Source of the DNA: an uncultured Rikenella sp.
GTDB lineage: Bacteria > Bacteroidota > Bacteroidia > Bacteroidales > VadinHA17
Direction: 5' to 3'
Assembly (NCBI GenBank): GCA_964455705.1
Contig: CAYVYM010000002.1
Span: 67,193-131,192 of the forward strand
DNA length: 64,000 nt
Shown: positions 4,515 through 58,100 of the stretch, in pieces
How positions within the stretch are numbered: the first letter of the stretch is position 1
How the letters are laid out: each line of letters opens with the position of its first letter
The notes under the pieces: generated by a model
The model's database searches: none
What the model saw: the letters and a program-made list of their open reading frames with translations, nothing else
What the model was told of the DNA's origin: nothing
Position numbers and translations under genes: made by a program

Positions 4515-4706
4515 ATGAATAAAGGAATTGTTAAATTTTTCAATGTATCCAAAGGTTTTGGGTTCATTAAAGACGCCGACTCATCGAAAGAGTATTTTGT
4601 CCATTCAACCGGACTGATCGACAAGATCAAGGAGAATGACGAAGTTACATTTGACCTCCAGGAAGGTAAAAAAGGATTAAATGCCGTTAATGTAAGACTT
4701 GCATAG
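4515..4706 (+). CDS. cold-shock protein (CspA family)
   Basis: 63 aa. GIVKFFNVSKGFGFI (RNP1-like) and FVHSTGL (RNP2-like) motifs. Confidence 0.9.
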   Translation: MNKGIVKFFNVSKGFGFIKDADSSKEYFVHSTGLIDKIKENDEVTFDLQEGKKGLNAVNVRLA

Positions 4707-4737
4707 TTGACAATATAATGTACATTTAATGACCTTG

Positions 4738-4765
4738 GTCCCGCCCAACCGGCGGGACTTTTTTT
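4738..4765 (+). terminator. rho-independent terminator after the csp gene
   Basis: GTCCCGCC-CAACC-GGCGGGAC stem-loop followed by seven T. Confidence 0.8.
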
Positions 4766-5634: not shown

Positions 5635-6714
5635 TCACCAGATATGAGGAATTATCCGCCACGGAACCCGTTTTCTGTATTCAGCCCATAGCTCTCCGTA
5701 TTTTGCAGAACAGCGCCTGTCATCATCATACTGCCTTGTAAAGAGGAGAAGGACATAATAAAGAGGGTAGAGCCATGGCCAGATGAGTCCGGGATAGCCG
5801 GTACAGAGAATGATCCCGGAGGCCATTAAGATCTCACCCAGGTAGTTTATATGCCTGCTTATACCCCAGAAGCCGTTCACCAACAGGCTTTTCTTATCGT
5901 CAGTAATGATCGCGGGAACGATCCCGATAAAAGATCTTTGCGGATCACGCTTGAAGAAAAACTTTTGCATGTTGGCACCCCTGGCCAGCATCCAACCGGA
6001 AAAGAAGATGACTGCATAAACCGCCAAAAGCCATGAAGGCGTATGCGGATCAGGCAGTGCCACAGTAGCCCATAAGCTTATAGTATAAAAGTAGGGGTAG
6101 AATACGATGCATCCCCACCCCAGCTTGAAGCCTATCCTCTCGGCAAAAATGTCGTATGTATAGAGGTGAACCTCCTCAAATATAAGATATTCAATAACAA
6201 ACCAGCTCAGCAGCGTCGCCGATAGCAATATTCCGGGTGAGGCAGCCTCACCGTAAGCCATAAGGTGATAAGCAGTGAAGCTTAGTATATTGAGCTCAAG
6301 CATTATGGCTCCGGCAAGATAAAGCCACATTTTGATGTCTACCCTGCCATTCAGGACCTGAAGGTTCTCAACCCTTCCCAGGAAAAGATCCGCAGCTGAC
6401 GACTTCCTGACAGGTTTGCGGGGCAGTACCAGAACTAATGTGAAGACCAGCCCCAGGGAGCATGCACCTGCCAGTCCGTGCCAGCGGTAATTGTACAGAT
6501 AATCAAATGGTACTATTCCGGTTATGCCCAGGATGAACCACAATGCTACCACTACAATGAATACAAAGATGCCGTTGATACGGTACTTCATCTTATCCAA
6601 TGATCCCGGTTTGGTGATGTAACCTGATACCCTCCTGGCAGGAAGGTATGCATTCAGAATGAAGACCACGGCCATGATAACAACCGGTGCGATGAATCCT
6701 GAAAAATTTTCCAT
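5635..6714 (-). CDS. ERG4/ERG24 (sterol C-14/C-24/7-DHC reductase) family membrane reductase homologue
   Basis: Polytopic 359-aa protein. The C-terminus GISRHINYLGEIL ... LLFTRQYDDDRRCSAKYGELWAEY matches the C-x2-K-Y-G-x2-W-x2-Y family signature. DLFLGRVEN resembles signature 1. Confidence 0.7.
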   Translation of the reverse strand: MENFSGFIAPVVIMAVVFILNAYLPARRVSGYITKPGSLDKMKYRINGIFVFIVVVALWFILGITGIVPFDYLYNYRWHGLAGACSLGLVFTLVLVLPRKPVRKSSAADLFLGRVENLQVLNGRVDIKMWLYLAGAIMLELNILSFTAYHLMAYGEAASPGILLSATLLSWFVIEYLIFEEVHLYTYDIFAERIGFKLGWGCIVFYPYFYTISLWATVALPDPHTPSWLLAVYAVIFFSGWMLARGANMQKFFFKRDPQRSFIGIVPAIITDDKKSLLVNGFWGISRHINYLGEILMASGIILCTGYPGLIWPWLYPLYYVLLLFTRQYDDDRRCSAKYGELWAEYRKRVPWRIIPHIW

Positions 6715-41400: not shown

Positions 41401-44400
41401 ACAGGACACTCGCATCAATATATCCGGCACTGTTACTGACAGTTCCATTGATTCCCAGCGTGTTTCCTCCCAAACTCAGATCCCCGTTGGTAAGAGTCAG
41501 GTTATTATTTATATTGGTATTCACTGACAGGTAAACTCCAAGATAGTTATCAATAGTTAAATTATCGAAATCTGTGGTGGTCGTTCCGTTTATTGCCTGG
41601 GCTGATGTGCCATTCAAAGTAATAGTTGTTCCTGAGGAGGGAGAGAAAGTGCCATTATTAATAAAACTCCCACCAATTGAGTGATCGAAGCTTCCGGTAC
41701 CAAAGGTTGTATTATTGCCTAGAATTAAATTGCCCAATACAGTCATTGTGTCGGATGCAATAGTTGAGGCGGTCCCTGCCAGTATAAAGTCACCGGCAAT
41801 GTTCAATGGAGTGCCAGGCATGGTTTTAGCCCCGCTTCCACTGAGGATGAGATTGTAAAATCCGGATGTCAGGCCATTTGGATTTATTATTGTCTGGTCA
41901 GTTCCATTATATTCTATTGTAGTTGGCGTGTAGGCGGCCCTCAGTATCCCGTTATTGGTCAGGGTTCCTGCAATTCTGGTAACTGAACCGGTTGAAAGTG
42001 CGACTGCTGCACCACTGTTTAAGGTAAGGTCATAAAAGTCTGTTGTACCCGATATTGTCGCATTTGGATTAGTAAAAAATACTGTACTGTTCCCTGCATT
42101 GAATATTCCGCCCTCATTACTCCATACACCGCTTGAGCCATTGAGTGTAAGTTGAGAACCTGTTCCGGAATTCAGTATTGCTCCGCTTTTTAAAGTAATT
42201 GTTCCGCAAGCTGTAAAAGGAGGCAGAACAGGATCGTTGGGTGTTGTGGCAGCATCAGGAATAATCACAACAGTATTATCTGACGGAGACCCGTTCGGAG
42301 TCCAGTTTTCTGCCGTAATCCATGAAGTACTTACTGATCCATTCCAGGTGAGGGACGTCAACTCTGATTCATCGGGAGAAATTTCCACCATACCAAAAGT
42401 TGGTGGGAAAAAAGCAAAATTTACATTGGCCAGCGTGATCCAGTTTTCAGTTGGATTGAAATTTGAACGTCCATGTTCAGTAAGTATTGAGCCTGAAAAC
42501 CTGTATGACCAGTTAACTATACTGCCCTCGTCATTTCCGTTCAGTTCAGAATCAAGGTAATGTGCATTTATAATAGCCAGGGTACCACTGGCCCCGGTCT
42601 GGATAATATCATGGATTCTTTGGACTGCTCCTGTTTTCCAGACAGGAGCAGTGCCAATTTGTACTTTAAGGCTTATTGAGGATGGTAATGTTCCCACGGC
42701 AGGGAAAAATACTGAAGTGTACTGATTCCCAAATGTATAGGTTACGTCAGGCAAAATTGTGTTTCTGGTAATAACACCAGTTACATCTCCGATTCCGATA
42801 GTAGTGGCGTCTGCACTCATGGTAAGGGTTTTGTCTGCAGAGCCATCCCACATGTCAAGACTACCTTTGGTTGCTGAAGGATTAGCACTTTGCAGATTAA
42901 CCACTCCGTTCACTGTCAGATCGCAACTGAAGGTTACACCGCCTGATCTGTTGATAGTGAGATTATTGATTGAGGGATCTGTCGTAAATAAACTACCGGG
43001 TATAGTAATTGCTGAGGTTCCTCCAAAACTCAATGAAGAGAGTGAGGTTATATCGACATTCCCGGAAATCTGACTGACAGCTCCATTGATACCCAGTGTG
43101 ATTTCTCCCACCCTCAGAGTCCCGCTGGGAAGATTCAGTAAGGAGTTTATATTTGTATTAATATACAAATTGACACCTGCACTGTTGTTAATAGTTAAAT
43201 TGTAAAAGTTTGTCAGGGAGGTTCCGCTTATGGTCTGAACAGAGGTCCCATTCATAATAATGGTGCTTCCTGCACTGGAGGTGAAAGTGCCATTGTTGGT
43301 AAGGTTGCCCTTCCCGGAATGTATGTAATTGCCGGCATCAAAGGTAGCACCTGCACCAATTGTTACATTCCCTTCAATAGTATACCCAGCTGCAGCAGTT
43401 GCCGAAGTTGTACCTGCCATTGTGAAGTCCCCTTTTACATTTATTGGATTGCCAGGCAAGGTTTTAGTCCCGCTGCCGCTAAGGATGAGATTATAATATC
43501 CGGGAATTGATCCATCAGGACTAATGATAGTCTGGTTCGAACCATTATATTCAATTGTATTTGGATTCAAAGCGGCATGAAGGACTCCGTTTTGTATTAT
43601 TGTGCCTGTAATCCGCATGATACTTCCGGATTCCAGGGTCAATCCGGCACCAATGTTCAGGGTAATATCATTGAAATTTGTTGTTCCGCTTATGGTTGCA
43701 AGAGCATTGGTGAAAACCACAGTACCTGTGCCGGGATTAAATATCCCGTTGTTGGCCCATGCGCCACTTCCTCCGGCAAGCCTAAAAACAGTACCCGTTC
43801 CTCCATTCACCACGCCACCTGCCTGTATTGTCAGAGTATTTATTGTGGTGCTGGCAGGCAAAGTTGGTTCATGAGGAAGGGAGGCAGTACTTGGAATTAT
43901 TACATCATCAGCGGATAGTGGAACATATCCTTTTGTCCAGTTTAATGGAATATTCCAATCGGTGCTGACTGATCCATTCCATGTATTCAGGACAGTCTGT
44001 GAATTAGCCATGGTGAGAAAGTCGGTACCAAAAGCAGAGGATAAAAACTCTACAGAATAATTTGAATAAACAACCCAGTTTTGCGTGGTGTTGAAGCCAG
44101 ATACGCCGTGTTCTATCGCTAACGGGTAACCGGGTTGCCAGCTCCAGATAACAAGATTACCCTCAGTGTTCCCGTTAAGTTCGCTGTCGAGATAGCTCGT
44201 AGCGGTAGTTGCATATGCTCCATTTGCACCTGTCTGTATAATTTCGTATATTCTTTGTATGGCATCGGGTTTCCATGAAGGAGCTGTACCAATGGTTACC
44301 CTTATACTCATTTCAGTTGGAAGTGTTCCCGTATTCTGGAATACTAATGTATTATACTGATTACCAAACGTATAACTGACGCCGGCAACAATACTTGTCC

Positions 44401-47400
44401 GTTTAACAGTTCCGGTAACATCTCCTGCCCCTAATGTAGTGGCATTAGCCCCCAGGGTGAGGGTGAAAGCCCCCATTGCGAGACTGCCTTTTGTTGCAGA
44501 AGGGTTAGCACTCAGCAAATTCAGTATTCTGTTTACAGTGAAATCGCTGCTGGCAGAAATGCCGCCGGATCCATTAATGGTTAAATTATTCACGCTGCCT
44601 GTAAAGATTAAGGCAGGGAGGGTTATGGCAGAAGAGTTTGTAAAAGAGAGGGTAGCAGAGGCATTGCCTGCATCAATGCTCCCGTTAGCACGGGTAGGTG
44701 AGTTCCCGGATAAAGTCAAGGTGTTTGCAGCAATGGTTATGGTACCGTTTGTTAACACAAGAGTGCCACCGACGCTGACAGAACCGCCCAGGCCAATGCC
44801 ATTCGCCCGGTTCAGCGTCAGGTTGTTGAGCACAACTGCAGGCAGAGTGGTTGTGGCGCCACTGCCTCCAATAATGATATTTGAAGTACTTCCCCCTGTT
44901 AATGTGCCTGCCGCAGTAGTAATTGAACCATTAATCGTCAATGTATTTGCACCGATTGAAAAAGCTCCGTTTGTTAAAGTGAAGGATCTGGTTATTATTA
45001 AGTCTCCATTGATTATCAGGCCGTTTATATTATTCAAACCGATGGCATCAGTTGTATTACTGACCAACGCTCCCGAAGGAATATTTTGAGCGGATTCTCC
45101 TGCAAATACGATTTCTGATGATGTTGCGGTGGCGTCTATCTGTGCCCCGTTTGTAAAAATAAGGTTACCGGTGATTGTAAGTTGGTGGCCATTAATAATA
45201 AACTTATAAGTACTTTGATCGTTAGTGATATTTTTCAGACTCCTGTCCTGGTCCAGCAGGCAACTTCTGGCCGGGTTAACTGCAAACATAATGTCAGCCC
45301 CATTTGGAGGGACAGACCCATGAGTCCAGTTACCCGCAGTTCCAAAGTCTGTACTTATAGTTCCTGCCCATACAAAACTATTTACTTCTAATGCACCCAT
45401 ATTAGGAACAGCATTCCTTGTAAGACCGCTATGGTCTGTTGTAATTCCCGTACCTGATACCCCGTTCAATATTGCAGAAGAGTAATAATCCAAAGCTATT
45501 GTCCCCCCTGCATTGGCAAAGAGAGGGTCTGTATTCATACTATTGACATCCTGTCCGGTGGCGGCCTGAAACAATGCCAGCGTTGTCAGGTCTGCTCCCG
45601 CATATCCTAAGACTCCATTTGTATTTGGAGCATAATAATCGTTATAATCAATAGTCAGGTTTGTATTCCCGGCTAAACGTATAGCATAGTGTTTGCCGGT
45701 TGTCCCTCCCGAGCGGGCATTGAACAAAATATTATTCCGGTAATTTCTTGTTGAAGTATTGGCAGCATTCCATAAAGCGCCCGTTGACGATGTTGTTCCG
45801 GCAACAGTACCACCAATATAAACAGTGTTAAAATAAATGGAATTGTTATTTGTTGAACCACTGTTATCCCAAATACCATTGATAAGATAACCGGTAGCAA
45901 TACCAGGGCCAAGGATGATGATATTGTTGGCACAGGTTGTAAGTCCATTCATCAGTACCATTCCATCCATGTCAGATCCGGTATTTGAGGATGAAATAGA
46001 TAAACTATGAACTAAGTTTCGTGAAACGGTATTTACTCCTGTAGGTGGTCCTGCATAGTATATCCCATAAATGTCTACCCTGGCAGTCGGGTGTGTACTT
46101 GACACATTATAAACAGTATTGCCATTCACACTTTGTGCAGTACCTGCCGTAGTGGATTTTTGCACAATACCTATCACCGGAGCACTTGTGGTAGATCCGG
46201 TCTGCCCGCTGGCTGTTGAAATGTTATATACAGTATTGTTTTGAATAGTATTTGATCCGGCAGAAGTTTCAATACCTATAGTTTGTGATACTGATGTTCC
46301 TGTAACTTCATTGGTTAAATTAGCGACAATATTGCCTGATATGGTTATAGTCCCCGTACCATCACTACTTATACCATTTACAATCTGACCATTCCATAGA
46401 CTTGTTGAACTGGCATAAATACTGTTGGAAGTGGTAGTGCTCCCGATTATATTATTGCTAATTATTGTAGTTCCTGTTGCTGCGGTCCTGTTTATTGCGT
46501 ATATGTTGCTTGCTCTTCCGGTGTTTGTGTTAGCAGCCGTTATGGAACCAATCCTATTATGCTGGCAATCAACAATCCCGACACTTGCAATATTAATTCC
46601 ATATATAGTCTGGCCGGAAGTCCCACTGGTTACTGTAATAGACCCGGTACCGGTTGATTCCCCGATTGAGTTTCCGGTAACGGTCCCAATATCCACATTC
46701 CCGGCTATTATATTTATACTTGTCCATGCCGCGGTTCCTGAATTACGCCAGTCGAAATTCTTAATTGTATTGTTTTGAACACTGCTTGCCGTAGCAGTTC
46801 CCACGTTTAAAAAAATACCATTAAAAACATTGTTGTTATTATTTGTTTTGGTCCAGGCTGAACCCCCACACAGAGCAGTACTACCACCTATATTGTTATC
46901 TGAGATAATAAACCCCGTGCCGGAGGTATTATTTATCTGGAGGGCTCTATATGTTACACCACCTGAAGGCACAAATGAAGTTGTTTCATAAAAACTGTTT
47001 CCCGTAATTATCCACGCCGAGGTGTTAGAAGAGAGAAATACACCATTGGAATTTGTGCCGTTTCTCAGGAAATCATAAATATTATTGTTGCTGATTATGT
47101 TTCCGCTGTTTTCCCTTCCTAACGTTCCGGAAGAAAAGATGGCATTTACCGGACGGCTGGCATCAGCAGCACTGGTTATATTATTGTTATCAATTGAATT
47201 ATTATTATTTCCCGCAGTAGCGTTACTTGTTGAAAAAAAAATAACACCACTTGTGGCGACCGTTTCCGAACCCTTAATTGTGCAATATTTCACAGAATTG
47301 TTCGTAGCAGTGTTGATCAGCCTGATAGTTGATGTCCCGGCCGTGGATGCTGTACTGTTATTCGTAATGATCAGGTCAGGTGTTGTACCTGTTGCATCAA

Positions 47401-48436
47401 CCCTGCCATCAATGGTTACGTTATCGGCTCCGTTTAGGTTTATCAGAGGTGCCGATAAATTACCACTGATAGAAAGGCCTGTGTTGGTAGGATAAATATT
47501 TACCGATACATAGTCAGCGCTTCCGCTTCCACTGGCATTTAGGGCCGCAGAAGTGGTTTCGGTGGTGCTTCCATGAATCTGAATAGTAACATTACCACGA
47601 TGAGTGCCATCGTTGATTTTATCAAAAGCAGTTTTGAGGTTTGGATAGTATGAATGTAATATTCCGTTGGTAGAAGTTAATTCGACAGGGAGCATATATC
47701 TTATCCAGGTGTTGTTCGTCCCGCTTTTCACCTCCTGCCATTTGTTAAAAAAGCCGTTTACCCCGCTGTGAATACCCATATCCACTCCCGAAACAGAAAT
47801 ATTATCATTCCCGAGTTTAAGTACTATTTCGTTTGTGGTTTCATAGAAACTGACTTGTATGTCAGCATAAAGTCCGTCATTGTAGTCAATCTCAATATTA
47901 TGACTCTCGATTGTAAATATGCGGTTAGGTGCGGTTCCGGTCACCAGATATCTGCACCAGGAATCAGCAATTCTACCGAGGTTACAGTCGTACATTGAGG
48001 TGGCAACTATTTGTCCAAATCCGGTAGCGGTTGCTGTCAGATCATAGGCACTTGCGGCGGAGTAATTATTTCCGGCTGCAATGCCGTCAAGACGGATAAA
48101 ACCGTTTGAGGCTACACTTAAGCTGTTTGCAGCAGTATAGTTATTATCATAGAAGGTAAAATTAAATGGCCAATTGATGGAAACCTGAGTATCGTCACCT
48201 GTAACAATTGTGGTTCCCGATGAACAGTCAATCCAACTGTATGTAGTCCCTATTGTACCTGTTTTTGTGCCGTAGTTCCAGCTTGCCGATGCCTGGGACC
48301 TTACCTGTAAGGGTAGTCCACATAGAATCGAAAAAAATACGATAAGTATAGATATTCTAAGCTTCTTTTTGATTTCATTTTCTCCAGGAACCACCTTTAT
48401 TCTGGTGTCAGATCCGACAACATCCTTTATTCTCAT
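38402..48436 (-). CDS. giant secreted/surface protein (about 3,344 aa) with beta-helix-like N-terminal half, four mega-repeats and a T9SS-type C-terminal sorting domain
   Basis: Single uninterrupted ORF. ATG at 48436 (the track's 48469 start is a TTG). Signal-like KKKLRISILIVFFSILCGLPLQVRSQA. The C-terminal 78 aa (...LYNILGQPVF...GVYIVRFVSGNKRITKRILILY) resemble Por secretion tails. Confidence 0.85.
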   Translation of the reverse strand: MRIKDVVGSDTRIKVVPGENEIKKKLRISILIVFFSILCGLPLQVRSQASASWNYGTKTGTIGTTYSWIDCSSGTTIVTGDDTQVSINWPFNFTFYDNNYTAANSLSVASNGFIRLDGIAAGNNYSAASAYDLTATATGFGQIVATSMYDCNLGRIADSWCRYLVTGTAPNRIFTIESHNIEIDYNDGLYADIQVSFYETTNEIVLKLGNDNISVSGVDMGIHSGVNGFFNKWQEVKSGTNNTWIRYMLPVELTSTNGILHSYYPNLKTAFDKINDGTHRGNVTIQIHGSTTETTSAALNASGSGSADYVSVNIYPTNTGLSISGNLSAPLINLNGADNVTIDGRVDATGTTPDLIITNNSTASTAGTSTIRLINTATNNSVKYCTIKGSETVATSGVIFFSTSNATAGNNNNSIDNNNITSAADASRPVNAIFSSGTLGRENSGNIISNNNIYDFLRNGTNSNGVFLSSNTSAWIITGNSFYETTSFVPSGGVTYRALQINNTSGTGFIISDNNIGGSTALCGGSAWTKTNNNNNVFNGIFLNVGTATASSVQNNTIKNFDWRNSGTAAWTSINIIAGNVDIGTVTGNSIGESTGTGSITVTSGTSGQTIYGINIASVGIVDCQHNRIGSITAANTNTGRASNIYAINRTAATGTTIISNNIIGSTTTSNSIYASSTSLWNGQIVNGISSDGTGTITISGNIVANLTNEVTGTSVSQTIGIETSAGSNTIQNNTVYNISTASGQTGSTTSAPVIGIVQKSTTAGTAQSVNGNTVYNVSSTHPTARVDIYGIYYAGPPTGVNTVSRNLVHSLSISSSNTGSDMDGMVLMNGLTTCANNIIILGPGIATGYLINGIWDNSGSTNNNSIYFNTVYIGGTVAGTTSSTGALWNAANTSTRNYRNNILFNARSGGTTGKHYAIRLAGNTNLTIDYNDYYAPNTNGVLGYAGADLTTLALFQAATGQDVNSMNTDPLFANAGGTIALDYYSSAILNGVSGTGITTDHSGLTRNAVPNMGALEVNSFVWAGTISTDFGTAGNWTHGSVPPNGADIMFAVNPARSCLLDQDRSLKNITNDQSTYKFIINGHQLTITGNLIFTNGAQIDATATSSEIVFAGESAQNIPSGALVSNTTDAIGLNNINGLIINGDLIITRSFTLTNGAFSIGANTLTINGSITTAAGTLTGGSTSNIIIGGSGATTTLPAVVLNNLTLNRANGIGLGGSVSVGGTLVLTNGTITIAANTLTLSGNSPTRANGSIDAGNASATLSFTNSSAITLPALIFTGSVNNLTINGSGGISASSDFTVNRILNLLSANPSATKGSLAMGAFTLTLGANATTLGAGDVTGTVKRTSIVAGVSYTFGNQYNTLVFQNTGTLPTEMSIRVTIGTAPSWKPDAIQRIYEIIQTGANGAYATTATSYLDSELNGNTEGNLVIWSWQPGYPLAIEHGVSGFNTTQNWVVYSNYSVEFLSSAFGTDFLTMANSQTVLNTWNGSVSTDWNIPLNWTKGYVPLSADDVIIPSTASLPHEPTLPASTTINTLTIQAGGVVNGGTGTVFRLAGGSGAWANNGIFNPGTGTVVFTNALATISGTTNFNDITLNIGAGLTLESGSIMRITGTIIQNGVLHAALNPNTIEYNGSNQTIISPDGSIPGYYNLILSGSGTKTLPGNPINVKGDFTMAGTTSATAAAGYTIEGNVTIGAGATFDAGNYIHSGKGNLTNNGTFTSSAGSTIIMNGTSVQTISGTSLTNFYNLTINNSAGVNLYINTNINSLLNLPSGTLRVGEITLGINGAVSQISGNVDITSLSSLSFGGTSAITIPGSLFTTDPSINNLTINRSGGVTFSCDLTVNGVVNLQSANPSATKGSLDMWDGSADKTLTMSADATTIGIGDVTGVITRNTILPDVTYTFGNQYTSVFFPAVGTLPSSISLKVQIGTAPVWKTGAVQRIHDIIQTGASGTLAIINAHYLDSELNGNDEGSIVNWSYRFSGSILTEHGRSNFNPTENWITLANVNFAFFPPTFGMVEISPDESELTSLTWNGSVSTSWITAENWTPNGSPSDNTVVIIPDAATTPNDPVLPPFTACGTITLKSGAILNSGTGSQLTLNGSSGVWSNEGGIFNAGNSTVFFTNPNATISGTTDFYDLTLNSGAAVALSTGSVTRIAGTLTNNGILRAAYTPTTIEYNGTDQTIINPNGLTSGFYNLILSGSGAKTMPGTPLNIAGDFILAGTASTIASDTMTVLGNLILGNNTTFGTGSFDHSIGGSFINNGTFSPSSGTTITLNGTSAQAINGTTTTDFDNLTIDNYLGVYLSVNTNINNNLTLTNGDLSLGGNTLGINGTVSNSAGYIDASVLSSLYFGGTSAITIPGDIFTAPPSFNNITINRSGGVTFSSDITVIGVLHLQSSNPSATKGALDMYDGPALKMITMGPSSTTLGIGDVTGIVRRDSFVAGIPYTFGNQFTTVTLDANGDFPDGLNLKIVIGTSPSWKPSAINRIYEYIQDNSSGCTGAFRLHYLDSELNGNTESKLVIFLNGNPGPPAGIIQLEQEANDETDNWIEDINIPVFFLRTGYGTLELTLADSELSVALWNGSISTSWTEAGNWTPPGVPSSGSDVVIPDASTTTFVPSLPASTEIKSLQLDNEAILNAGTGSQLTLNGSTYAWRNDYSASFNNSNSNVIFTNPAAFLWGTSSFNNLTVGSGATLTLSLDSYIKISGAIINNGTLEAGIIKNTVEYNGTAQTVINPNGVVPGYNILILSGSGEKTMPSSQLNVVYDFTLSGTATAAANQNLILEGNITVGPSAAFTTGSFNHSIGGFLENNGSFTATGSTITFNGTVQTIRGTVPVAFDNLSVATGSNTTVITSGQTVSRILLCNGTLHSDGNITLLSTESRTALIDGTGTGQVLGNLIMQRYLSSGFGYKYFSSPFQSATVNELADDINLSASFIPLYSYDENRYFNSTPLSGWVNYNTSTNILNPLSGYAVNLGSNSAPITIDIAGIVNNGSMSVTLYNHNQIYTQGFNLVGNPYPSPIDWNAASGWTKDNIDNSLYFFKANTTDQYGGTYSTFINGNSSDGVVDNIIPSMQGFFVHVSDGSYPVTGTLAMDNDVRVTNLTHPFTKSRETAVVSLLRIVAGYSDNPDSFDPTVLYFDDKATSDFDGQLDALKLYNTDASVTNFYSISDNDYLLSINALPATENGLNSIPLGLKTEKNGEVIFRVSESKGSFTGKLIYLSDVVTGINQDLKPGNEYKIYLGASEYKTRFFLNFTDKETAITEIPADNGWFTVYASHGVLITDVDLPEGQTGIMTLYNILGQPVFMDKIHKSGHYEFNPALKDGVYIVRFVSGNKRITKRILILY
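39740..45370 (-). repeat. intragenic protein-level tandem mega-repeat, 3 full + 1 truncated unit
   Basis: Units open with W-[AN]-G-[ST]-[IV]-S-T-[DS]-[FW] at nt 45370, 43981, 42346 and 40702 (463, 545 and 548 codons apart). SANPSATKG and YLDSELNGN recur in units 1-3. The DNA copies are strongly diverged. Confidence 0.8.
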
Positions 48437-48769
48437 TAGACATAATATGAGAAATATGATTATAACCAATTATAACACAAAGGAGACTTTTCTGATGCTG
48501 ATAGTCATTACATAATAGTGTAATTAAGTTATATGATTCACACGTTAATTATAATTAATGATTTTATGCTCAATTAACATGCACATCCATGTTTCTTCTT
48601 CCTGAGATTCCTTAAGTCACAAGTGCAATTACCGCGACATTGTGAAAAAAATGCAATTGGCCCTATACATTGATCCACACAACAGTCGGTTGTTGAATAG
48701 CAACAATAAATAGCGTATTAACAACTATTTGTTTAGGTATTTGTAACGATTCCGAAGATTGATCCGGGT

Positions 48770-48804: not shown

Positions 48805-49755
48805 ATGTTAAGTACAATGATTATTGGGAATAAAATTGCCAAAGCACGAAAGAGGGTCAATATTTCACAGGCCCGGCTTGCTGAGAAACTATTCATCAGT
48901 CCGCAGGCAGTCGGGAAGTGGGAGCGGGGGGAATCAATGCCGGACATAATAACATTTAACCGTCTTGCGGAAATCCTGGGTGTTGACCTTAACTATTTTT
49001 CAGAAAGCTTCCAGCCGGTGGCTACTGAAACGGCAGCCGCTGAGCCTTTGGATAAGCAACCGGATGAATTGAATTCGTCTAATGAGATGCAGTTGACATC
49101 CGGAAAGCAGAAGAAAAAGCTTGGCTGGGATATGTCACGCGGTAATTGGGTGGATGCTGACTTTTCCGGATTGAAAAATCTGCATGCAAAATTCAGTTCC
49201 TCCAACATGCTGCGCTGCAAGTTTATAGGTTCCGATCTGACCGGACTTCTTCTGAAAGGTAATAATGTTGATAGCTGCGACTTCTCAGGTTCCGACTTCG
49301 GCAACAGCCACATTCAGGGGTCCAACCTGGTCAGCAACATGTTTAAGGACTGTTCACTGAAGGAAACCCAATTTTCAGATAGCTATATCTCTGGCTGCGA
49401 TTTCACCGGCGCTGATTTTACAGACGTGAAGTTTAAATCCGGTGGCTTTACCGGAGTGGTCACTAAATCTGGCGACCTGGAGAAAAATACAATTGCAAAT
49501 GCTGTGTGGAATCGCACCTCTTTTAATGCTATGTATATTGCCGATATAGTTATCATGGGAACAGTGGAGGATTGCTCGTTTGAAAACTGCGCATTTACCA
49601 GGGTGGCATTCAGGAACTCAACACTTATTAACACTTTCTTTAAAAACAAGAGTCTGAAACGTATCCGGTTCATTGACTGTCAGGCCGATCGGATGACTTA
49701 TGAATTCCTGAAAAACGGTAAGGCAGATTTAACCGGTATCACATTGTTAACCTAA
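48805..49755 (+). CDS. XRE-family HTH domain fused to a pentapeptide-repeat domain
   Basis: N-terminus IGNKIAKARKRVNISQARLAEKLFISPQAVGKWERGESMPD (HTH_3 type). C-terminal half is runs of A/C/S-[DN]-[LF]-x-x pentads (ADFSGLKNLHAKFSSSNMLRCKFIGSDLTG...CDFTGADFTDVKF). Confidence 0.75.
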   Translation: MLSTMIIGNKIAKARKRVNISQARLAEKLFISPQAVGKWERGESMPDIITFNRLAEILGVDLNYFSESFQPVATETAAAEPLDKQPDELNSSNEMQLTSGKQKKKLGWDMSRGNWVDADFSGLKNLHAKFSSSNMLRCKFIGSDLTGLLLKGNNVDSCDFSGSDFGNSHIQGSNLVSNMFKDCSLKETQFSDSYISGCDFTGADFTDVKFKSGGFTGVVTKSGDLEKNTIANAVWNRTSFNAMYIADIVIMGTVEDCSFENCAFTRVAFRNSTLINTFFKNKSLKRIRFIDCQADRMTYEFLKNGKADLTGITLLT

Positions 49756-51459: not shown

Positions 51460-51990
51460 CTAAAAAATGAGTGTCAGTGCGAGGTACTTGACCATCAATC
51501 CCAGAACGGTACAGATTACCGTGTCACGAATACGGTGTCGCAGCATGCCAGCGGCAAGGGAGATGACGGGAGAGGAGAGGGGCAGGGCATTGAAAACAAG
51601 GATCGTCAGGTTGCCATACTTTTCTATTTTTGCTTCAGCCTTCTCATAACGCTTCCGGCCAATGAAATTATCTATGAACCTGTTGCTCATACTCAGGCCA
51701 AGGGAATAATCAATTGACTGTGAGAAGAGCGCCGTGCTTATCGCCACGGCATTCAGCGCCGAAACGCTGATATCGCCCTGGAGATAAAATATGAATGCCA
51801 CCTCCACTGGCATGAAAAGGAAGAAGAGATAACCGCAGGCATTCACAATTGCAAACGATAACAACCCCTCGTCGCGTGATCCGTAATATATGTCCCGTCC
51901 CACGGTCATCGATGCAATGGTTATGGCTGACATCACCAGCAGGATTGCAATGACGATACGCGTTATCTCAGCCTTGCTTTTTCTCACCAT
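51460..51990 (-). CDS. VTT/YqaA (DedA-related) membrane protein
   Basis: Five TM helices. KIEKYGNLTILVFNALPLSSPVISLAAGML. Its ATG overlaps the stop of the upstream CYTH gene (TGATG). The track start at 51993 is a GTG. Confidence 0.55.
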   Translation of the reverse strand: MVRKSKAEITRIVIAILLVMSAITIASMTVGRDIYYGSRDEGLLSFAIVNACGYLFFLFMPVEVAFIFYLQGDISVSALNAVAISTALFSQSIDYSLGLSMSNRFIDNFIGRKRYEKAEAKIEKYGNLTILVFNALPLSSPVISLAAGMLRHRIRDTVICTVLGLMVKYLALTLIF

Positions 51991-52457
51991 CACCAGCGGC
52001 TGAAGGGTTTGACCGAGAGAGCTGAGTTATAGTATCGCGGATCACCTGAGACTTCCTCGCCCAGCCATGGAGGCTTCTCAAACGCCTCATCAGCGGACCC
52101 GAGCTCGATCTCTGCCATAACAAGGCCGTTGTTCGCCCCATGAAACACATCAACCTCGACGGTATGTCCTCTGTAAGGCACGAGGTAACGGGTCTTCTCC
52201 ACGGCAAAGGGCTCGCAGAGCTTCAGCAGTTCCCTGGCATCATCAACAGAGATCTCCTTCTCCCACTCATACCTCTCAATACCTGACTTATCCGATCTCC
52301 CCTTGACCGTGATGTACCCCTTCTCACCACGAATACGCACCCTGACGGTGCTGCCCGGCGAAGATGAGAGGTACCCCTGCACTATCTCAGATGATTCTGT
52401 GGCTTCATTCCTGAACTCTCCACAGACAAGAAACTTTCTTTCAATCTCGGATGACAT
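51990..52457 (-). CDS. CYTH-domain protein (triphosphate tunnel metalloenzyme; CyaB/ThTPase-like)
   Basis: MSSEIERKFLV start (EXEXK motif), VRVRIRGEKGYITVKG, GLVMAEIEL. The upstream extension in the track (to 52577) is AT-rich promoter DNA. Confidence 0.8.
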   Translation of the reverse strand: MSSEIERKFLVCGEFRNEATESSEIVQGYLSSSPGSTVRVRIRGEKGYITVKGRSDKSGIERYEWEKEISVDDARELLKLCEPFAVEKTRYLVPYRGHTVEVDVFHGANNGLVMAEIELGSADEAFEKPPWLGEEVSGDPRYYNSALSVKPFSRW

Positions 52458-52560
52458 ATTAGAAAAATAAAGATACACCTTAAGCTGAATAAAGTATGAA
52501 TCATAAATTTTTTTTGCGTTTTTTCTTTTTTTCTGATTTTTGTGTACTTTAGCGTCCGAA

Positions 52561-52635
52561 ATGAAGAGAACATACACAGCATACGGCTTTTCTTTTTACT
52601 TTTTCTATTACTATCCGGAAAAAGGGACTGAATAG
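52561..52635 (+). CDS. candidate Phe/Tyr-rich leader peptide (24 codons) of the aromatic amino-acid operon
   Basis: ATG AAG AGA ACA TAC ACA GCA TAC GGC TTT TCT TTT TAC TTT TTC TAT TAC TAT CCG GAA AAA GGG ACT GAA TAG = MKRTYTAYGFSFYFFYYYPEKGTE. 10 of 24 codons are Phe or Tyr. A terminator lies 40 nt downstream. Confidence 0.6.
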   Translation: MKRTYTAYGFSFYFFYYYPEKGTE

Positions 52636-52674
52636 TTGTATATCTGTGAAAGGATTAAGAAATATGATGAAGGC

Positions 52675-52700
52675 AGTCCCGCAAGTGCGGGACTTTTTTT
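52675..52700 (+). terminator. intrinsic terminator (attenuator) 12 nt upstream of pheA
   Basis: (A)GTCCCGC-AAGT-GCGGGAC(T) followed by a 7-T run. The 5' arm (CAGTCCC, 52674-52680) is also complementary to GGGACTG at 52624-52630 inside the leader ORF. Confidence 0.7.
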
Positions 52701-52712
52701 ATAGGAATACGG

Positions 52713-53597
52713 ATGAAAACAGAAGAGGAAAAGATCAGTGTGGCGATCCAGGGCGTGCGTGGGTCATTTCATGATATAGCGGCAGTTGAATTTTTCGCGG
52801 GGGAAGAGATAACAACAGTACCATGCGATACCTTTGATGATCTGTTCCGCATTGTAAGAGGAGGGAAGGCCGGTTACGGCATCGTGGCATTTGAGAACTC
52901 TGTGGCGGGAAGCATCCTTCCCAACTACGAGTTACTTCGCAAGTCGCAGCTCATCGTGACCGGGGAGATCTACCTTCGCATTAAGCAGAACCTGATAGCT
53001 CTTCCCGGACAGCATCTGTCTGATATAACCGAAATACACTCTCACCCCATGGCCATACAACAGTGCAATGTCTTCCTTGATATGATGAGGAAGGAGGGGG
53101 TGAAGGTTGTTGAGACCATTGACACCGCCCTCAGTGCCATGCTTATCAGCGAGAAAAAGCAGCATGGCATAGGCGCTATAGCCAGCAGCAGCGCGGCAGC
53201 AATGTACAACCTGGCGATCATTAAAAAGGAGATCGAGGCTGACAGGCAGAACTTCACGCGGTTCCTGATCATCTCAGGCAGGAGTAACGGGGCTCCCGCC
53301 ATAAGTATGGAAAACAACGCTGACAAGGCGATGGTATGCTTCTCACTGCCCCATAAGGTAGGCTCATTGTCGCAGGTGCTGTCTGTCCTTGCCTTCTACC
53401 AGGTCAGCCTGACAAAAATCCAGTCTCTGCCTATTGTTGGCAAGCCCTGGGAATACCTGTTTCATATCGATTTGTTATTTAGCGACTTTCAGCGCTACCA
53501 CATGGCTCTCGATGCTATACGGCCGCTGACGGAGGGGCTGGAGATAGTTGGTGAATTCAGGCAGGGGGTAATGCCCCATGCTGCCGGACAAAACTGA
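52713..53597 (+). CDS. pheA: prephenate dehydratase (with ACT domain)
   Basis: ISVAIQGVRGSFHDIAA, ENSVAGSI, TRFLII, ACT region SLPHKVGSLSQVLSVLA. Confidence 0.85.
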   Translation: MKTEEEKISVAIQGVRGSFHDIAAVEFFAGEEITTVPCDTFDDLFRIVRGGKAGYGIVAFENSVAGSILPNYELLRKSQLIVTGEIYLRIKQNLIALPGQHLSDITEIHSHPMAIQQCNVFLDMMRKEGVKVVETIDTALSAMLISEKKQHGIGAIASSSAAAMYNLAIIKKEIEADRQNFTRFLIISGRSNGAPAISMENNADKAMVCFSLPHKVGSLSQVLSVLAFYQVSLTKIQSLPIVGKPWEYLFHIDLLFSDFQRYHMALDAIRPLTEGLEIVGEFRQGVMPHAAGQN

Positions 53598-53619
53598 AGA
53601 GAACCCAAACCGTTCAATT

Positions 53620-54813
53620 ATGGAGAAACCAATTATAAAAGCAGCCTCACGCACCGGACTTGTGAATGAGTACTACTTCTCGACCAAGCTGGCCGAGATA
53701 GCCCACATGAGACAACAGGGCATTAACGTCATAAGCCTGGGTATAGGCAGTCCGGACATGCCACCTGCCCCCGATGTAATTGAGGCGCTCGCGAAGAACG
53801 CATCTGACAGCAGCAATCACGGCTACCAGAGTTACAGGGGCATATCTCAGCTCAGGATTGCATTTTCATCATGGTACATGAATTATTTCAGGGTAACGCT
53901 CGAGCCGGATACGGAGATACTGCCACTGATTGGTTCCAAGGAGGGGATAATGCACATCAGCATGGCATTTCTCGATCAGGGTGATGAGGTGCTGGTACCT
54001 GACCCCGGTTATCCGGCTTATGGCGCTGCTGCGAAGCTGGCCGGAGGCCTTCCCAGGAGCTATGACCTTAAGGAGGAAAACGGTTGGATGCCTGATATTG
54101 AGGCTATTGAGGCCTCGGGAGTGAGGAGGGTAAAGATGATGTGGATCAACTATCCACATATGCCCACCGGCGCCAGGGCCACCCCGGCGATCTTTGAGCG
54201 GCTTGTCTCCTTTGCCCGCAGGCACAACATACTGTTATGCCATGACAATCCCTACAGTTTTATACTGAACAATGATCACCTGAGCATCTTCTCCGTTCCC
54301 GGATCCCGTGATGTCGCCCTTGAGCTGAACTCGCTCAGCAAATCGCATAACATGGCTGGTTGGAGGATTGGCATGGTTGCCGGTAGCAGTTCCTTTATAA
54401 ATGACATCCTGAAGATTAAGAGCAACATGGACTCAGGCATGTTCCAGCCGTTACAGGCCGCTGCCGTTAAGGCTCTTGCGGCACCGGACGACTGGTATGC
54501 ACAGCTCAATGAGATCTACAGCCGGCGCCGAAACAGAGCCGCGGAGATAATGAATGCCCTTTCATGTACCTTTGATCCGGGGCAGGCCGGGCTCTTCCTC
54601 TGGGGGAAAATCCCGCCGCAGTTCACTGATGCCGTTGAGATGACAGAGAAACTGTTGCATGAGAATCATATCTTTATCACACCCGGGTCAGTCTTCGGAG
54701 ACAACGGTATGAGACACATCAGGATATCGCTTTGCGCAACTGAGGAACTCCTCACTGCTGCACTGGAAAGAATTAATTCACACAAAAAGGCAACAACCGG
54801 TCAAACACCTTAA
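53620..54813 (+). CDS. class I/II pyridoxal-phosphate aminotransferase (probable aromatic/prephenate aminotransferase)
   Basis: LGIGSPDMPP, NYPHMPTG, SLSKSHNMAGWRIG (PLP lysine). Start placed at ATG 53620, after the pheA stop. Confidence 0.8.
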   Translation: MEKPIIKAASRTGLVNEYYFSTKLAEIAHMRQQGINVISLGIGSPDMPPAPDVIEALAKNASDSSNHGYQSYRGISQLRIAFSSWYMNYFRVTLEPDTEILPLIGSKEGIMHISMAFLDQGDEVLVPDPGYPAYGAAAKLAGGLPRSYDLKEENGWMPDIEAIEASGVRRVKMMWINYPHMPTGARATPAIFERLVSFARRHNILLCHDNPYSFILNNDHLSIFSVPGSRDVALELNSLSKSHNMAGWRIGMVAGSSSFINDILKIKSNMDSGMFQPLQAAAVKALAAPDDWYAQLNEIYSRRRNRAAEIMNALSCTFDPGQAGLFLWGKIPPQFTDAVEMTEKLLHENHIFITPGSVFGDNGMRHIRISLCATEELLTAALERINSHKKATTGQTP

Positions 54814-54818
54814 ATCAA

Positions 54819-55670
54819 ATGTCTGCAAATATATGTATAGTGGGCCTGGGTCTCATAGGAGGCTCCCTGGCCCGAAGCCTGAGGCTTAACGGCTTCTCCG
54901 GCAGGATCACGGGTGTGGAGAGCAATCCGCATCATTGTACCATAGCAATGTACCGGGGTCTGGCCGACGAGTTCCTTCCGCTGGAGGAGGCTGTTGAGCA
55001 ATCGGAGATCATCATCCTCTGCGCTCCTGTTGATGTCAACTGCCAGCTTCTGCCCCGCGTTCTCGACCTGATTCAGGGCACAACAAAAGTGGTTACTGAC
55101 ATGGGGTCAACCAAGGCTGATATCTCTGCGGCAGCCGCAACCCATCCTGCCCGGGGCAGATATGTGTCAGCTCATCCTATGGCAGGCACGGAGCACTCCG
55201 GGCCGGCGGCAGCTGTTGACAGGCTCTTCCATGACAAGGTGGCCATCATATGCGATCCCAGGCGTAGCGACGAGGATGCCCTGGAGCTGATAACAGCCCT
55301 GTTCCAGTCGTTTAACATGCATATCCGGTATATGAAGTCATCAGACCACGATGTGCACGTGGCGTACGTGTCGCACATATCACATATAACTTCCTTCGCT
55401 CTGGCGCTGTGCGTCCTTGAAAAAGAGAAGAACACCGAGAACATCATGTCTCTTGCCGCGGGAGGGTTTGAGAGTACGGTTCGCCTTTCGAAGAGCAGCG
55501 GAGAGACCTGGGCCCCGATCTTCATTGGGAACTCCGGTCCCATACTCGAGGTTATTGACACTTATATCGAAAAGATGCGCCTCTTCAAGCGATATATAAA
55601 GAATGGCGACCACGACTCACTGAGAGACCTGATGAGATCAGCCAACGAGATAGGCCATATACTTAAATGA
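54819..55670 (+). CDS. tyrA: prephenate dehydrogenase
   Basis: ICIVGLGLIGGSLARSL Rossmann motif, AHPMAGTEHSG. Confidence 0.8.
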   Translation: MSANICIVGLGLIGGSLARSLRLNGFSGRITGVESNPHHCTIAMYRGLADEFLPLEEAVEQSEIIILCAPVDVNCQLLPRVLDLIQGTTKVVTDMGSTKADISAAAATHPARGRYVSAHPMAGTEHSGPAAAVDRLFHDKVAIICDPRRSDEDALELITALFQSFNMHIRYMKSSDHDVHVAYVSHISHITSFALALCVLEKEKNTENIMSLAAGGFESTVRLSKSSGETWAPIFIGNSGPILEVIDTYIEKMRLFKRYIKNGDHDSLRDLMRSANEIGHILK

Positions 55671-55685
55671 ACCTCTGACTATATC

Positions 55686-56801
55686 ATGAAAAGAGAGACC
55701 ATTACACCAACGAATAAGAAACTTGATATCACTCCGATAGAGGAGTGGTCCATATATAAGCAACGGCCCCTGATGATAGCCGGGCCCTGCAGTGCCGAAA
55801 GTGAGGAGCAGGTGATGCTCACCGCCGCCGGGCTGGCAGCCACGGGCAAAATTGATCTCTTCCGTGCCGGCATCTGGAAGCCGAGAACCCGTCCTGACCA
55901 ATTTGAAGGAGTGGGCACCGTAGGGCTGAAATGGCTGCGGACGGTGAGAGAGGTATACGGTCTTCCCGTCTCCGTTGAGGTGGCTACGGAGAAGCATGTC
56001 TATGAAGCATTAAAGCATGGTGTTGATGCCGTCTGGATAGGAGCACGCACAAGTGTCAACCCGTTTGCCATGCAGGAAATAGCAACAGCACTTAAAGGCG
56101 CAGACGTTATGGTGTTCGTCAAGAATCCCATTAATCCTGATCTTGAACTCTGGATCGGCGCCATTGAAAGAATAAGCAAGGCGGGTATCACTCATCTTGC
56201 TGCCATCCATCGCGGATTCTCATCGTGGGAGAAGAGTGCCTTCCGCAACCAGCCGCGATGGCAGATACCAGTTGAACTGCGCCAGCGTATACCTCTCCTG
56301 CCGATGATATGTGATCCGAGTCACATGGGTGGCGACAGGTCGTTCATCGGCGACCTTTCACAGAAAGCGATGGACCTGAACTACGACGGCCTGATGATAG
56401 AGTCACACATCGATCCGGAAAGCGCGCTGAGCGACAGGAAGCAGCAGGTCACACCGGCAGAGCTGACTGGGATAATTGACAGCCTGGTGCTCAGGTCACC
56501 GACGACGGATGACCCCGAGTTCCTTGAGACGATTGAGGACCTGCGCAGCCAGATAGATGTATATGACAACCTGCTCCTTGATATCCTCGAGAGCCGCATG
56601 CAGGTGGCTGAGACAATTGGGAGATACAAGAAGGAACACAACATCACCATACTACAAAGCACCAGGTGGAAGGAGGTGAAGAACAACGCTGTGGACAAAG
56701 GGGTAAGAAAGGGGCTGACACCGGAGTTCATCCAGACCTTCCTGGAGGCGATACACCAGGAATCTATCACTCACCAGATGAAAGTGATGAAAGAAGATTA
56801 A
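55686..56801 (+). CDS. bifunctional 3-deoxy-7-phosphoheptulonate (DAHP) synthase / chorismate mutase type II
   Basis: KDO8P/DAHP-synthase-like TIM barrel (MIAGPCSAESEEQ, CDPSHMGG, LMIESHIDP), then a C-terminal chorismate-mutase helix region (LRSQIDVYDNLLLDILESRMQVAETIGRYK). Confidence 0.8.
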   Translation: MKRETITPTNKKLDITPIEEWSIYKQRPLMIAGPCSAESEEQVMLTAAGLAATGKIDLFRAGIWKPRTRPDQFEGVGTVGLKWLRTVREVYGLPVSVEVATEKHVYEALKHGVDAVWIGARTSVNPFAMQEIATALKGADVMVFVKNPINPDLELWIGAIERISKAGITHLAAIHRGFSSWEKSAFRNQPRWQIPVELRQRIPLLPMICDPSHMGGDRSFIGDLSQKAMDLNYDGLMIESHIDPESALSDRKQQVTPAELTGIIDSLVLRSPTTDDPEFLETIEDLRSQIDVYDNLLLDILESRMQVAETIGRYKKEHNITILQSTRWKEVKNNAVDKGVRKGLTPEFIQTFLEAIHQESITHQMKVMKED

Positions 56802-56849: not shown

Positions 56850-58100
56850 ATGGAGATCACCGTTCATCCGTCATATCTTAAAGGAAAGATTGAGGCGCCG
56901 GCAAGCAAAAGTCTCACTCAAAGAGCTATAGCTGCAGGACTGCTGGCTAAAGGCACAACAGTGATCCGCAATCCTTCATTCTGCAATGACTCCCTGGCAG
57001 CCATAAACATGGCCGGTGCCCTTGGCGCCCGGATCACAAGGGAGCACGGTTCAATTACCGTACAGACAGGTCTGAGACCTGTCGCCCCCGTAACCCTCCA
57101 CTGCGGAGAATCAGGCCTGGCGTTGAGAATGTTTGCCCCTATCTCTGCCCTGCTCTCGGATCATGTGACTCTCACCGGTGAGGGCTCTCTGCTCCGGAGG
57201 CCCGTGAACATGATAGTTGAGGCCTTGAGCCAGCTGGGAGTACAGGCAGAGACCAGTGGCGGTTTTTTGTCGGTGACGCTAACGGGCAGACTGAGAGGAG
57301 GCATGGTGGCCATTGACGGCTCAACAGGCTCGCAACTGCTTACGGGACTGCTTATGGCGCTGCCGCTGGCAGCGGAGGAGAGTCTGATTGAGGTGGCTTA
57401 TCTGAGGAGCAGGCCATATATAAGCCTGACCCTTAAGTTACTGGAGGATTTTGGCATCAGAGTTGATAACACCGGCTTCAGCCGTTTCGTCATACCCGGG
57501 AACCAGGAGTACCATCCGCGTGAATACAGGGTTGAGGGCGACTGGAGCGGGGCAGCGTTCCTGCTTGTTGCCGGGGCACTGACAGGTGACGTCACCGTAG
57601 GTAACCTCAATGTTGCAAGCCTGCAGTCGGACAGGGCAATAATGCGGGCGCTGCATGATGCCGGTTGTCTATTAACAGAAACCGATGAAGGGGTGAAGGC
57701 TGAGAGGTCTGATCTCAGGGCATTTGACTTTGATGCCACTGATTCCCCTGATCTGTTTCCGCCCCTGGCAGCACTGGCAGCCGGGTGCAGGGGCACAAGC
57801 AGGATCAGAGGTGTAAGCCGCCTCGTGCATAAGGAGAGTGACAGGGCAGGCACTATCACAGGTGTGCTTGATGCTCTCGCGATAAGATCAGGCATTGAAG
57901 GTGATGAGATGCTCATTGAGGGCGGGACGGTCAGTGGTGGCGTTGTCTCGTCACATAATGATCATCGTATAGCCATGATGGCTGCCGTGATGGCTGCCGG
58001 CGCCTCGGGTGGGGTCACCATCAGGAACGCCGAAGCGGTGGCAAAATCATATCCCGGCTTCTTTGATGACATGAGCCTGATAGGGGCTGCGATATCCTGA
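56850..58100 (+). CDS. aroA: 3-phosphoshikimate 1-carboxyvinyltransferase (EPSP synthase)
   Basis: APASKSLTQRAI, LHCGESGLALR, HKESDRAG, NDHRIAMM. Confidence 0.9.
   Translation: MEITVHPSYLKGKIEAPASKSLTQRAIAAGLLAKGTTVIRNPSFCNDSLAAINMAGALGARITREHGSITVQTGLRPVAPVTLHCGESGLALRMFAPISALLSDHVTLTGEGSLLRRPVNMIVEALSQLGVQAETSGGFLSVTLTGRLRGGMVAIDGSTGSQLLTGLLMALPLAAEESLIEVAYLRSRPYISLTLKLLEDFGIRVDNTGFSRFVIPGNQEYHPREYRVEGDWSGAAFLLVAGALTGDVTVGNLNVASLQSDRAIMRALHDAGCLLTETDEGVKAERSDLRAFDFDATDSPDLFPPLAALAAGCRGTSRIRGVSRLVHKESDRAGTITGVLDALAIRSGIEGDEMLIEGGTVSGGVVSSHNDHRIAMMAAVMAAGASGGVTIRNAEAVAKSYPGFFDDMSLIGAAIS

Follow-up and report, generated by a model that had tools for sequence, protein, structure and literature searches.

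The locus examined here raises the question of how transcription of a five-gene aromatic amino acid operon is controlled in an uncultured Rikenella sp. of the Bacteroidales. The DNA analyzed, called the window in the following, is a stretch of 64,000 nucleotides (nt) from contig CAYVYM010000002.1 (assembly GCA_964455705.1, positions 67,193 to 131,192). The region concerned lies directly upstream of pheA, the first gene of the operon, where an earlier reading of the bare letters (the original prediction) had placed a leader open reading frame (ORF) rich in phenylalanine (Phe, F) and tyrosine (Tyr, Y) codons together with a terminator and an antiterminator. The present analysis suggests, with a probability of roughly 0.88, that a ribosome-mediated (leader-peptide) transcription attenuator controls the operon. 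The observations behind this reading comprise the elements themselves, their energetics, their conservation and covariation among relatives, selection at the level of codons, and an association of codon mix with operon content.

The leader ORF extends from 52561 to 52635 on the forward strand (ATG at 52561, TAG at 52633-52635) and consists of 24 codons plus the stop, encoding MKRTYTAYGFSFYFFYYYPEKGTE. Phe and Tyr account for 10 of the 24 codons. Eight of these are packed into nine consecutive codons, F10 S11 F12 Y13 F14 F15 Y16 Y17 Y18 (four Phe, four Tyr; 52588-52614, +), and two additional Tyr codons, Y5 and Y8, lie outside it, giving six Tyr and four Phe codons in the whole leader. The coordinates and the translation given in the original prediction, including residues 10-18, hold when the sequence is read anew. 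Among 1411 small ATG-initiated ORFs on both strands of the window, this ORF is the only one with eight Phe/Tyr per nine residues, the runners-up having six.

Two other small ORFs were considered as leaders and rejected. One is the F-rich ORF MNHKFFLRFFFFSDFCVL (52496-52552, +), of which the closest relatives share neither the ATG nor the frame; it sits in the T-rich promoter region, ends within the putative −7 box described below and looks accidental. The other, an F/Y-rich ORF at 48301-48378 (−), falls inside the span of a single ORF of 3355 amino acids, which fills 38402-48469 (−), approximately 10 kb just upstream of the studied region, and probably encodes a giant surface or adhesin-like protein.

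Downstream of the leader ORF lies an intrinsic terminator (52675-52700, +). Its hairpin GTCCCGC-AAGT-GCGGGAC (52676-52693) forms, together with an A-U closing pair (52675-52694), an 8-bp stem with six G-C pairs and an AAGU loop, and is followed by seven T (52694-52700) and then by 12 nt up to the pheA ATG at 52713. Constrained folds gave an energy of −15.1 kcal/mol, or −17.2 kcal/mol when the A/U extension is included. The terminator coordinates, the seven T and the 12-nt gap had all been read correctly in the original prediction, and so had the alternative pairing, as GGGACTG (52624-52630) and CAGTCCC (52674-52680) are perfectly complementary. Using strict criteria (stem of at least 7 bp, at least five G-C pairs, at least six T), two intrinsic terminators were found in the entire window and none in 10 shuffles; a lax scan was not significant on its own (1 found, 1.1 expected). 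The other strong terminator (4739-4757, followed by a T run) was rejected as a comparable element, since it merely closes the gene of a cold-shock protein (MNKGIVKFFNVSKGFGFIKD...; 4516-4765, +). Canonical terminators seem to be rare in this genome.

The 157-nt leader (52556-52712) folds with −41.3 kcal/mol (z = −3.65), and none of 200 shuffles was equally stable. Minimum-free-energy and constrained folds resolve it into four regions. Region 1 (52575-52606, +) is the 5′ half of a 1:2 hairpin found in both the minimum-free-energy and the consensus folds; it overlaps the F/Y codons, and its pairs are preserved in relatives through G-U or compensatory changes. Region 2 (52617-52648, +), which spans the leader stop codon and holds GGGACUG (52624-52630) and GUUGUAU (52635-52641), is the alternative partner of region 1 or region 3 according to the folds and the alignment. 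Region 3 (52658-52682, +), made up of AGA.AUAUGAU (52658-52668) and CAGUCCCGC (52674-52682) and supported by constrained folds and the 25 relatives, pairs either with region 2 as antiterminator or with region 4 as terminator. In the minimum-free-energy fold the 1:2 hairpin (52575-52648) contributes −22.0 kcal/mol, with the terminator downstream. With region 1 masked and the transcript ended before the 3′ arm of the terminator, the RNA folds best into an antiterminator of two helices (−18.5 kcal/mol), in which GGGACUG pairs with CAGUCCC (helix one) and GUUGUAU.UCU (52635-52645) with AGA.AUAUGAU (52658-52668; helix two). The attenuation logic of the original prediction is upheld by the comparative data presented below; the 1:2 hairpin and the second antiterminator helix were missing from it.

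The spacing of these elements is suited to control by a translating ribosome. GGGACUG begins 9 nt before the stop codon, and the last regulatory codon occupies the positions 10-12 nt upstream of it. Taking the footprint size from general knowledge, the 3′ edge of a ribosome with its A site at codons 10-17 falls short of 52624, and a ribosome with its A site at the stop codon covers approximately 52618-52646, i.e., region 2. The window hence contains the sequence features expected of an attenuator of this type, namely an F/Y-enriched ORF, a terminator, an antiterminator exclusive with it and the corresponding geometry.

Based on these elements, the switch would operate as follows. Transcription would begin a few bases 5′ of the leader ATG, and a ribosome would translate the 24-codon leader while RNA polymerase advances. 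With ample Phe-tRNA and Tyr-tRNA, the ribosome would arrive at the UAG and cover region 2 (GGGACUG...GUUGUAU), regions 3 and 4 would pair, and the terminator would end the transcript 12 nt upstream of pheA. A shortage of charged tRNA-Phe or tRNA-Tyr is predicted to stall the ribosome at codons 10-18 inside region 1; the free region 2 could then pair with region 3, the −18.5 kcal/mol antiterminator would be formed before region 4 exists, and the polymerase would enter the operon. If the leader is not translated at all, regions 1 and 2 would be expected to pair (−22 kcal/mol) and the terminator to form.

A PheA profile search of species-representative genomes yielded 80 loci, 77 of which had enough upstream sequence to be assessable. 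Most are metagenome-assembled genomes (MAGs) of Bacteroidales, the closest one (92% PheA identity) being labelled uncultured Rikenella, and other labels include Bacteroides, Bacteroidaceae, Paludibacteraceae, Lentimicrobiaceae, Saprospiraceae, and a few Lentisphaeria. Since PheA identity across the loci ranges from 49% to 92%, the related loci are not assembly duplicates of one sequence. An F/Y-rich mini-ORF starting with ATG, followed by a terminator and then by pheA, was present at 66 of the 77 assessable loci; three more (L064, L076, and L078) carry an F/Y-rich mini-ORF with an imperfect hairpin and a U tract, bringing the total to 69. The distance from leader stop to terminator was 16-63 nt at 64 of the 66 automatically called loci. 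For the remaining two, L005 and L050, a wrong upstream ORF had been picked automatically and the leaders were re-identified by eye. Two MAGs labelled Lentisphaeria (L057 and L062) also have an F/Y leader and terminator, in their case before pheA-tyrA operons, and loci labelled Victivallales (L059) and Kiritimatiellae (L060) have no F/Y leader; the Lentisphaeria-labelled leaders could be due to a binning error or to a wider distribution of this design.

Not only the parts but also their pairing is kept in the relatives. The RNAalifold consensus of a 25-sequence close-clade alignment consists of the 1:2 hairpin and the terminator, and in the antiterminator 92% of cells are paired across the 25 relatives, compared with 32-46% when the partner is slid. 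One compensatory change in the antiterminator, from U-A to C-G, occurs in 5 of the 25 sequences. Across all clades, the pairing of the 5′ arm of the terminator with a segment close to the leader stop exceeds that of 95% of shuffles at 53 of the 66 loci, and this partner segment is located between −26 and +18 nt from the stop at 64 of them, the outliers again being the mis-picked ORFs of L005 and L050. The arms themselves change from clade to clade: GGGACUG/CAGUCCC, UCCGGGA/UCCCGGA, GAGCGGGA/UCCCGCUC, GAGCAGGAU/AUCCUGCUC, GGACCGGGA/UCCCGGUCU and AGCGGGGUG/GCCCCGCGG. For arms that differ, cognate partners outperformed non-cognate ones, with 18 arms at 5% or below in a cross-locus permutation, a comparison which is informative only for such arms, as many clades have GGGAC/GUCCC in common. 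The distant clades give stronger evidence of covariation than the close clade. Mini-ORF, terminator and alternative pairing are hence conserved and co-varying, as the original prediction required of the relatives.

The regulatory codons show a substitution pattern of their own. In the 25 aligned relatives, position 1 of the core codons is an invariant T, position 2 shows only A/T changes, which exchange Phe for Tyr or vice versa, and position 3 shows only C/T changes, which are synonymous. As the substitutions in the core are confined to Phe-Tyr exchanges and synonymous changes, selection acts on "Phe or Tyr" and not on a nucleotide motif.

The balance between the two amino acids follows the genes that are transcribed with pheA. 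Sorted by what comes after pheA, the loci comprise 12 with a stand-alone pheA (from at least two clades), which is followed by ilvD, a PhoU-like gene or a CYTH gene, and 50 with larger operons, in which pheA is followed by an aminotransferase, tyrA, DAHP synthase/chorismate mutase, aroB or aroA. Leaders of stand-alone pheA genes contain Phe-only runs such as FFFFFF, with a Tyr fraction in the core of 0.08, and leaders of larger operons mix F and Y, at times with tryptophan (Trp, W), with a Tyr fraction of 0.42 (Mann-Whitney p = 2e-7, with loci treated without phylogenetic correction). That Tyr codons are nearly absent with lone pheA and common with tyrA and shared-pathway genes argues that they are regulatory. 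Such a split corresponds to the prediction of dual sensing, and a mere tolerance of Tyr codons would not be expected to produce it. Judging from these leaders, it appears reasonably likely that Tyr is a true second input of the leader in the window.

Some further features of the leaders deserve mention. Seven loci (L029, L033, L037, L043, L067, L071, and L079) have one or two Trp codons within the F/Y run (e.g., FYYFWFY or FYWFYFWFY), a hint that leaders of operons with DAHP synthase may sense all three aromatic amino acids. At four loci with stand-alone pheA (L031, L048, L049, and L053), cysteine codons are interspersed with Phe codons (YFFCFCFFF, YFFRFCFCF). Where ilvD follows a stand-alone pheA, it is preceded by its own mini-ORF rich in isoleucine and leucine (Ile and Leu), e.g., MKLELTTILITILLDFTGGSENVV, and a terminator (L027:3144-3218, L030 ~1310-1389, L034:6940-6999, and L045 ~6070-6145, between pheA and ilvD). 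A segment GAAGUGAGA after this mini-ORF is complementary to the 5′ arm of the terminator, which is a strong one (CCCUCUCACUUC...GUGAGAGGGCUUUUU), and the element is probably a branched-chain amino acid attenuator of like design.

Several points weigh against the attenuator as proposed. No leader of this kind was found at eight of the 77 assessable loci. Covariation within the close clade is thin, with one compensatory pair and most paired columns invariant, and the shuffle control for this clade was exceeded only modestly (32-53 of 500). When the ribosome stalls at codons 17-18, the terminator is still slightly favored at equilibrium, so that read-through from there depends on kinetics, namely the order in which the helices form. 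The test linking codon mix to operon content ignores the kinship of the loci and has one exception (L050). As to this organism, we infer the transcription start, the translation of the leader ORF and the response to Phe and Tyr. Finally, the AroR leader of Corynebacterium glutamicum (Phe-Tyr-Phe), the one experimentally tested mixed leader found, is described in a secondary account as responding to limitation of Phe and not of Tyr (PMC11802643, citing Neshat 2014), and sensing of Tyr can therefore not be assumed.

The AroR result favors an attenuator that senses Phe alone, with the Tyr codons being neutral or tolerated because UAU and UAC preserve the pairing of a U/A-rich region 1 with region 2. 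Consistent with this, the F/Y codons lie within region 1 and are hence under structural constraint as well. Such a constraint does not readily account for Tyr being almost absent with stand-alone pheA (12 loci, at least two clades) while making up about 42% of the core in larger operons, nor for the fact that position 2 of the core codons switches between T and A only. In addition, the leader in the window itself has more Tyr than Phe codons (six versus four). Overall, sensing of Phe alone seems unlikely.

Far less probable still is a switch set by a factor acting in trans, be it an RNA-binding protein, an uncharged tRNA as in T-boxes or a small molecule bound by a riboswitch, with the mini-ORF being incidental. 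Aromatic operons of other phyla are regulated by T-box elements and by TRAP, and translation of the leader ORF is deduced from sequence alone, both of which would speak for such a factor. Yet neither the leader in the window nor 11 diverse loci matched any Rfam family at threshold, and outside the helices the sole conserved sequence is the in-frame F/Y run with its ATG and stop codon, the changes of which follow the genetic code. The position of region 2 is furthermore tied to the stop codon across clades of unrelated sequence. It might also be asked whether a T-rich promoter region simply reads as Phe and Tyr by chance and happens to precede an ordinary terminator. Phe codons arise easily in T-rich DNA, as the non-conserved F-rich ORF just upstream (52496-52552) illustrates, and the lax terminator scan did not exceed the shuffles. 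Against such a coincidence stand the divergent orientation of the upstream gene, which leaves nothing to terminate, the uniqueness of the leader ORF among the 1411 small ORFs of the window, and the recurrence of the whole arrangement, with co-varying arms, at 66 of 77 loci. By these comparative data, chance is effectively refuted. Attenuation by a translating ribosome, probably with Tyr as well as Phe as input, thus remains the preferred explanation.

For the start of the transcript, a putative Bacteroidota −7 box, TACTTTAG (52545-52552, +), was found at −16 from the leader ATG with one mismatch to TAnnTTTG; in L004 and L008, a box at this same distance matches TAnnTTTG exactly. Within 90 nt 5′ of the leader ATG, exact boxes are distributed bimodally (39 boxes at 61 loci), with 15 at −16 to −12 and 19 at −30 to −26, three at −39 to −36 and two of the 39 elsewhere. 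This clustering supports the −7 box and the start close to the leader ATG that the original prediction had proposed. In Flavobacterium psychrophilum, the mapped start of pheA lies 6 nt after the box (PMC9723704). By analogy with this distance, transcription in the window would start at approximately 52557-52559, giving a 5′ untranslated region (UTR) of about 2-4 nt. With so little room between the box and the ATG, the mRNA is likely to be nearly leaderless. For comparison, 5′ UTRs shorter than 10 nt are rare in Bacteroides thetaiotaomicron (approximately 3.7%; PMC7366714); prephenate dehydratase or BT_3936 was not found in the supplements of that transcriptome study.

In a broader view, the leaders of aromatic operons in Bacteroidota may constitute one uncatalogued family of multivalent attenuators, the codon mix of which is tuned to the transcript (Phe only for lone pheA; Phe and Tyr, sometimes Trp, with tyrA and common-pathway genes), with leaderless translation of the leader in about one third of the lineages including this one. 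We put forward this generalization tentatively, giving it slightly less than an even chance. If true, the leaderless reading would mean tight coupling of transcription and translation via recognition of a 5′-terminal AUG, in a phylum without Shine-Dalgarno-led initiation.

The genes downstream fit the proposed control of aromatic amino acid synthesis. All are on the forward strand: pheA (52713-53597), a prephenate dehydratase gene assigned by NCBIfam NF008865 (E = 2.8e-55) and by homologs so named; a PLP-dependent aminotransferase gene in the hisHb/aspC-like operon slot (53578-54813); tyrA, prephenate dehydrogenase (54819-55670; NF006307, 308.6 bits versus a cut-off of 295); a gene for DAHP synthase fused to chorismate mutase (55686-56801); and, as last gene, aroA, EPSP synthase (56850-58100; TIGR01356, 338.9 bits, above cut-off). 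According to the ORF map, the five genes are closely spaced and aroA is followed by a convergent gene. The original prediction had correctly named a pheA-tyrA-aroA operon, leaving out the aminotransferase and the DAHP synthase/chorismate mutase. Upstream, a gene for a CYTH-domain protein (51990-52457, −; Pfam PF01928, E = 1.8e-14; ATG at 52457) is oriented divergently, and the terminator can therefore not be the end of another transcription unit. At some distance, 48805-49755 (+) encodes an unusual fusion of an N-terminal HTH_3 (XRE-type) DNA-binding domain with pentapeptide repeats (Pfam).

The element is real and its mechanism ordinary, as such control is well known and had earlier been predicted for the phylum; current understanding is not overturned by it. 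What is added here are the four-region model, covariation across the phylum, the relation of codon mix to operon content, and the likely leaderless start. Little is charted of post-transcriptional control in Bacteroidota, and the element represents a clean and conserved case of leader-peptide attenuation for this phylum; it would imply a coupling of transcription and translation there that is tight enough for attenuation. For gut Bacteroidales, aromatic amino acid synthesis is predicted to follow tRNA charging and not a repressor, and the Phe-only and Phe-plus-Tyr leaders provide a natural experiment on the tuning of multivalent attenuators. Adding the element to Rfam and to annotation pipelines would prevent over-extension of pheA in the upstream direction and overlooking of the mini-ORF.

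Among known systems, the pheL-pheA leader of Escherichia coli is the obvious one to compare. Its Rfam model, RF01859 (Phe_leader), aligns end to end with 52573-52702 of the window, at 31.5 bits (E = 0.0026) and hence below the gathering threshold of 55; other matches at permissive E-values were weaker and attributable to chance, and no match at gathering level was obtained for 11 related loci. Both systems have a short ORF with Phe codons, hairpins 1:2, 2:3 and 3:4, a terminator directly before pheA and control by ribosome stalling. In contrast to the E. coli leader, which serves pheA alone, the one in the window mixes Tyr with Phe codons and precedes five genes including tyrA and common-pathway genes. 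Its promoter is furthermore of the Bacteroidota type, and its mRNA is probably almost leaderless, in place of a UTR with Shine-Dalgarno-led initiation. Its score lies below Rfam membership, and homology of the two leaders is not supported. The E. coli ilvGMEDA leader (codons for Ile, Leu, and valine) and the thr leader (threonine and Ile codons) likewise contain codons for each amino acid that the operon serves; here the likeness is one of logic only, as amino acids, sequences and phylum differ.

Candidate attenuators in Bacteroidetes/Chlorobi were reportedly described by Vitreschak and colleagues in 2004 (FEMS Microbiol Lett). For B. thetaiotaomicron, a table of predictions lists a Merino-predicted attenuator before pheA, hisHb, aroA-aroQ, tyrA (Song et al., 2005; PMC1173090, Table 7), and Bacteroides has been said to potentially use a pheL gene (Gurvich et al., 2011; PMC3082878). 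The passages concerned in these two papers are one-line mentions, which do not speak of Tyr codons, covariation or a dependence on operon content; the leaders of L068 (Bacteroides) and L073 (Bacteroidaceae) correspond to these predictions. Together with the transcriptome support from Flavobacterium (PMC9723704), they lower the novelty that the original prediction had implied. Its caveat about experimental proof of a Phe-plus-Tyr leader in Bacteroidota stands, as our literature search turned up no genetic or biochemical test of such a leader in the phylum. Similar to the leader in the window, AroR of C. glutamicum is a mixed Phe/Tyr leader for attenuation of aromatic-pathway genes, in that case aroF (Neshat et al., 2014, as cited in PMC11802643); it belongs to another phylum, has three aromatic codons and precedes a DAHP synthase operon instead of pheA.

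The closest counterpart comes from within the phylum. For pheA-aspC3 of F. psychrophilum, a leader-peptide attenuation element with the leader MNTNNTFYSNNSFYFYWNIGRDCYMVI was reported, with a mapped start, condition-dependent read-through and peak expression in minimal medium (Guerin et al., 2021; PMC9723704, Table S7, SI D9), and its authors likewise report no Rfam match. These transcriptomes give indirect support to the predicted rise of read-through when the cognate amino acid runs short. We compared the published 170-nt sequence feature by feature with 52545-52715 of the window and with intermediate loci. Common to both are the phylum, the order of pheA and aminotransferase, the −7 box and the aromatic-rich leader. 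The switch design is also the same, in that GGGAUUGU near the end of the F. psychrophilum ORF complements the terminator 5′ arm ACAAUCCC, which is followed by a U9 tract. Differences concern the 5′ UTR (20 nt, versus an estimated 2-4 nt in the window), a Trp codon in the F. psychrophilum leader and a region 2 that is further from the stop codon. Whereas the F. psychrophilum element has a mapped start and expression data, the element in the window is known from its sequence only. The element in the window nevertheless corresponds to the description of the Bacteroidota pheA leader element, and the continuity of the pattern across the intermediate loci suggests that the two are homologous.

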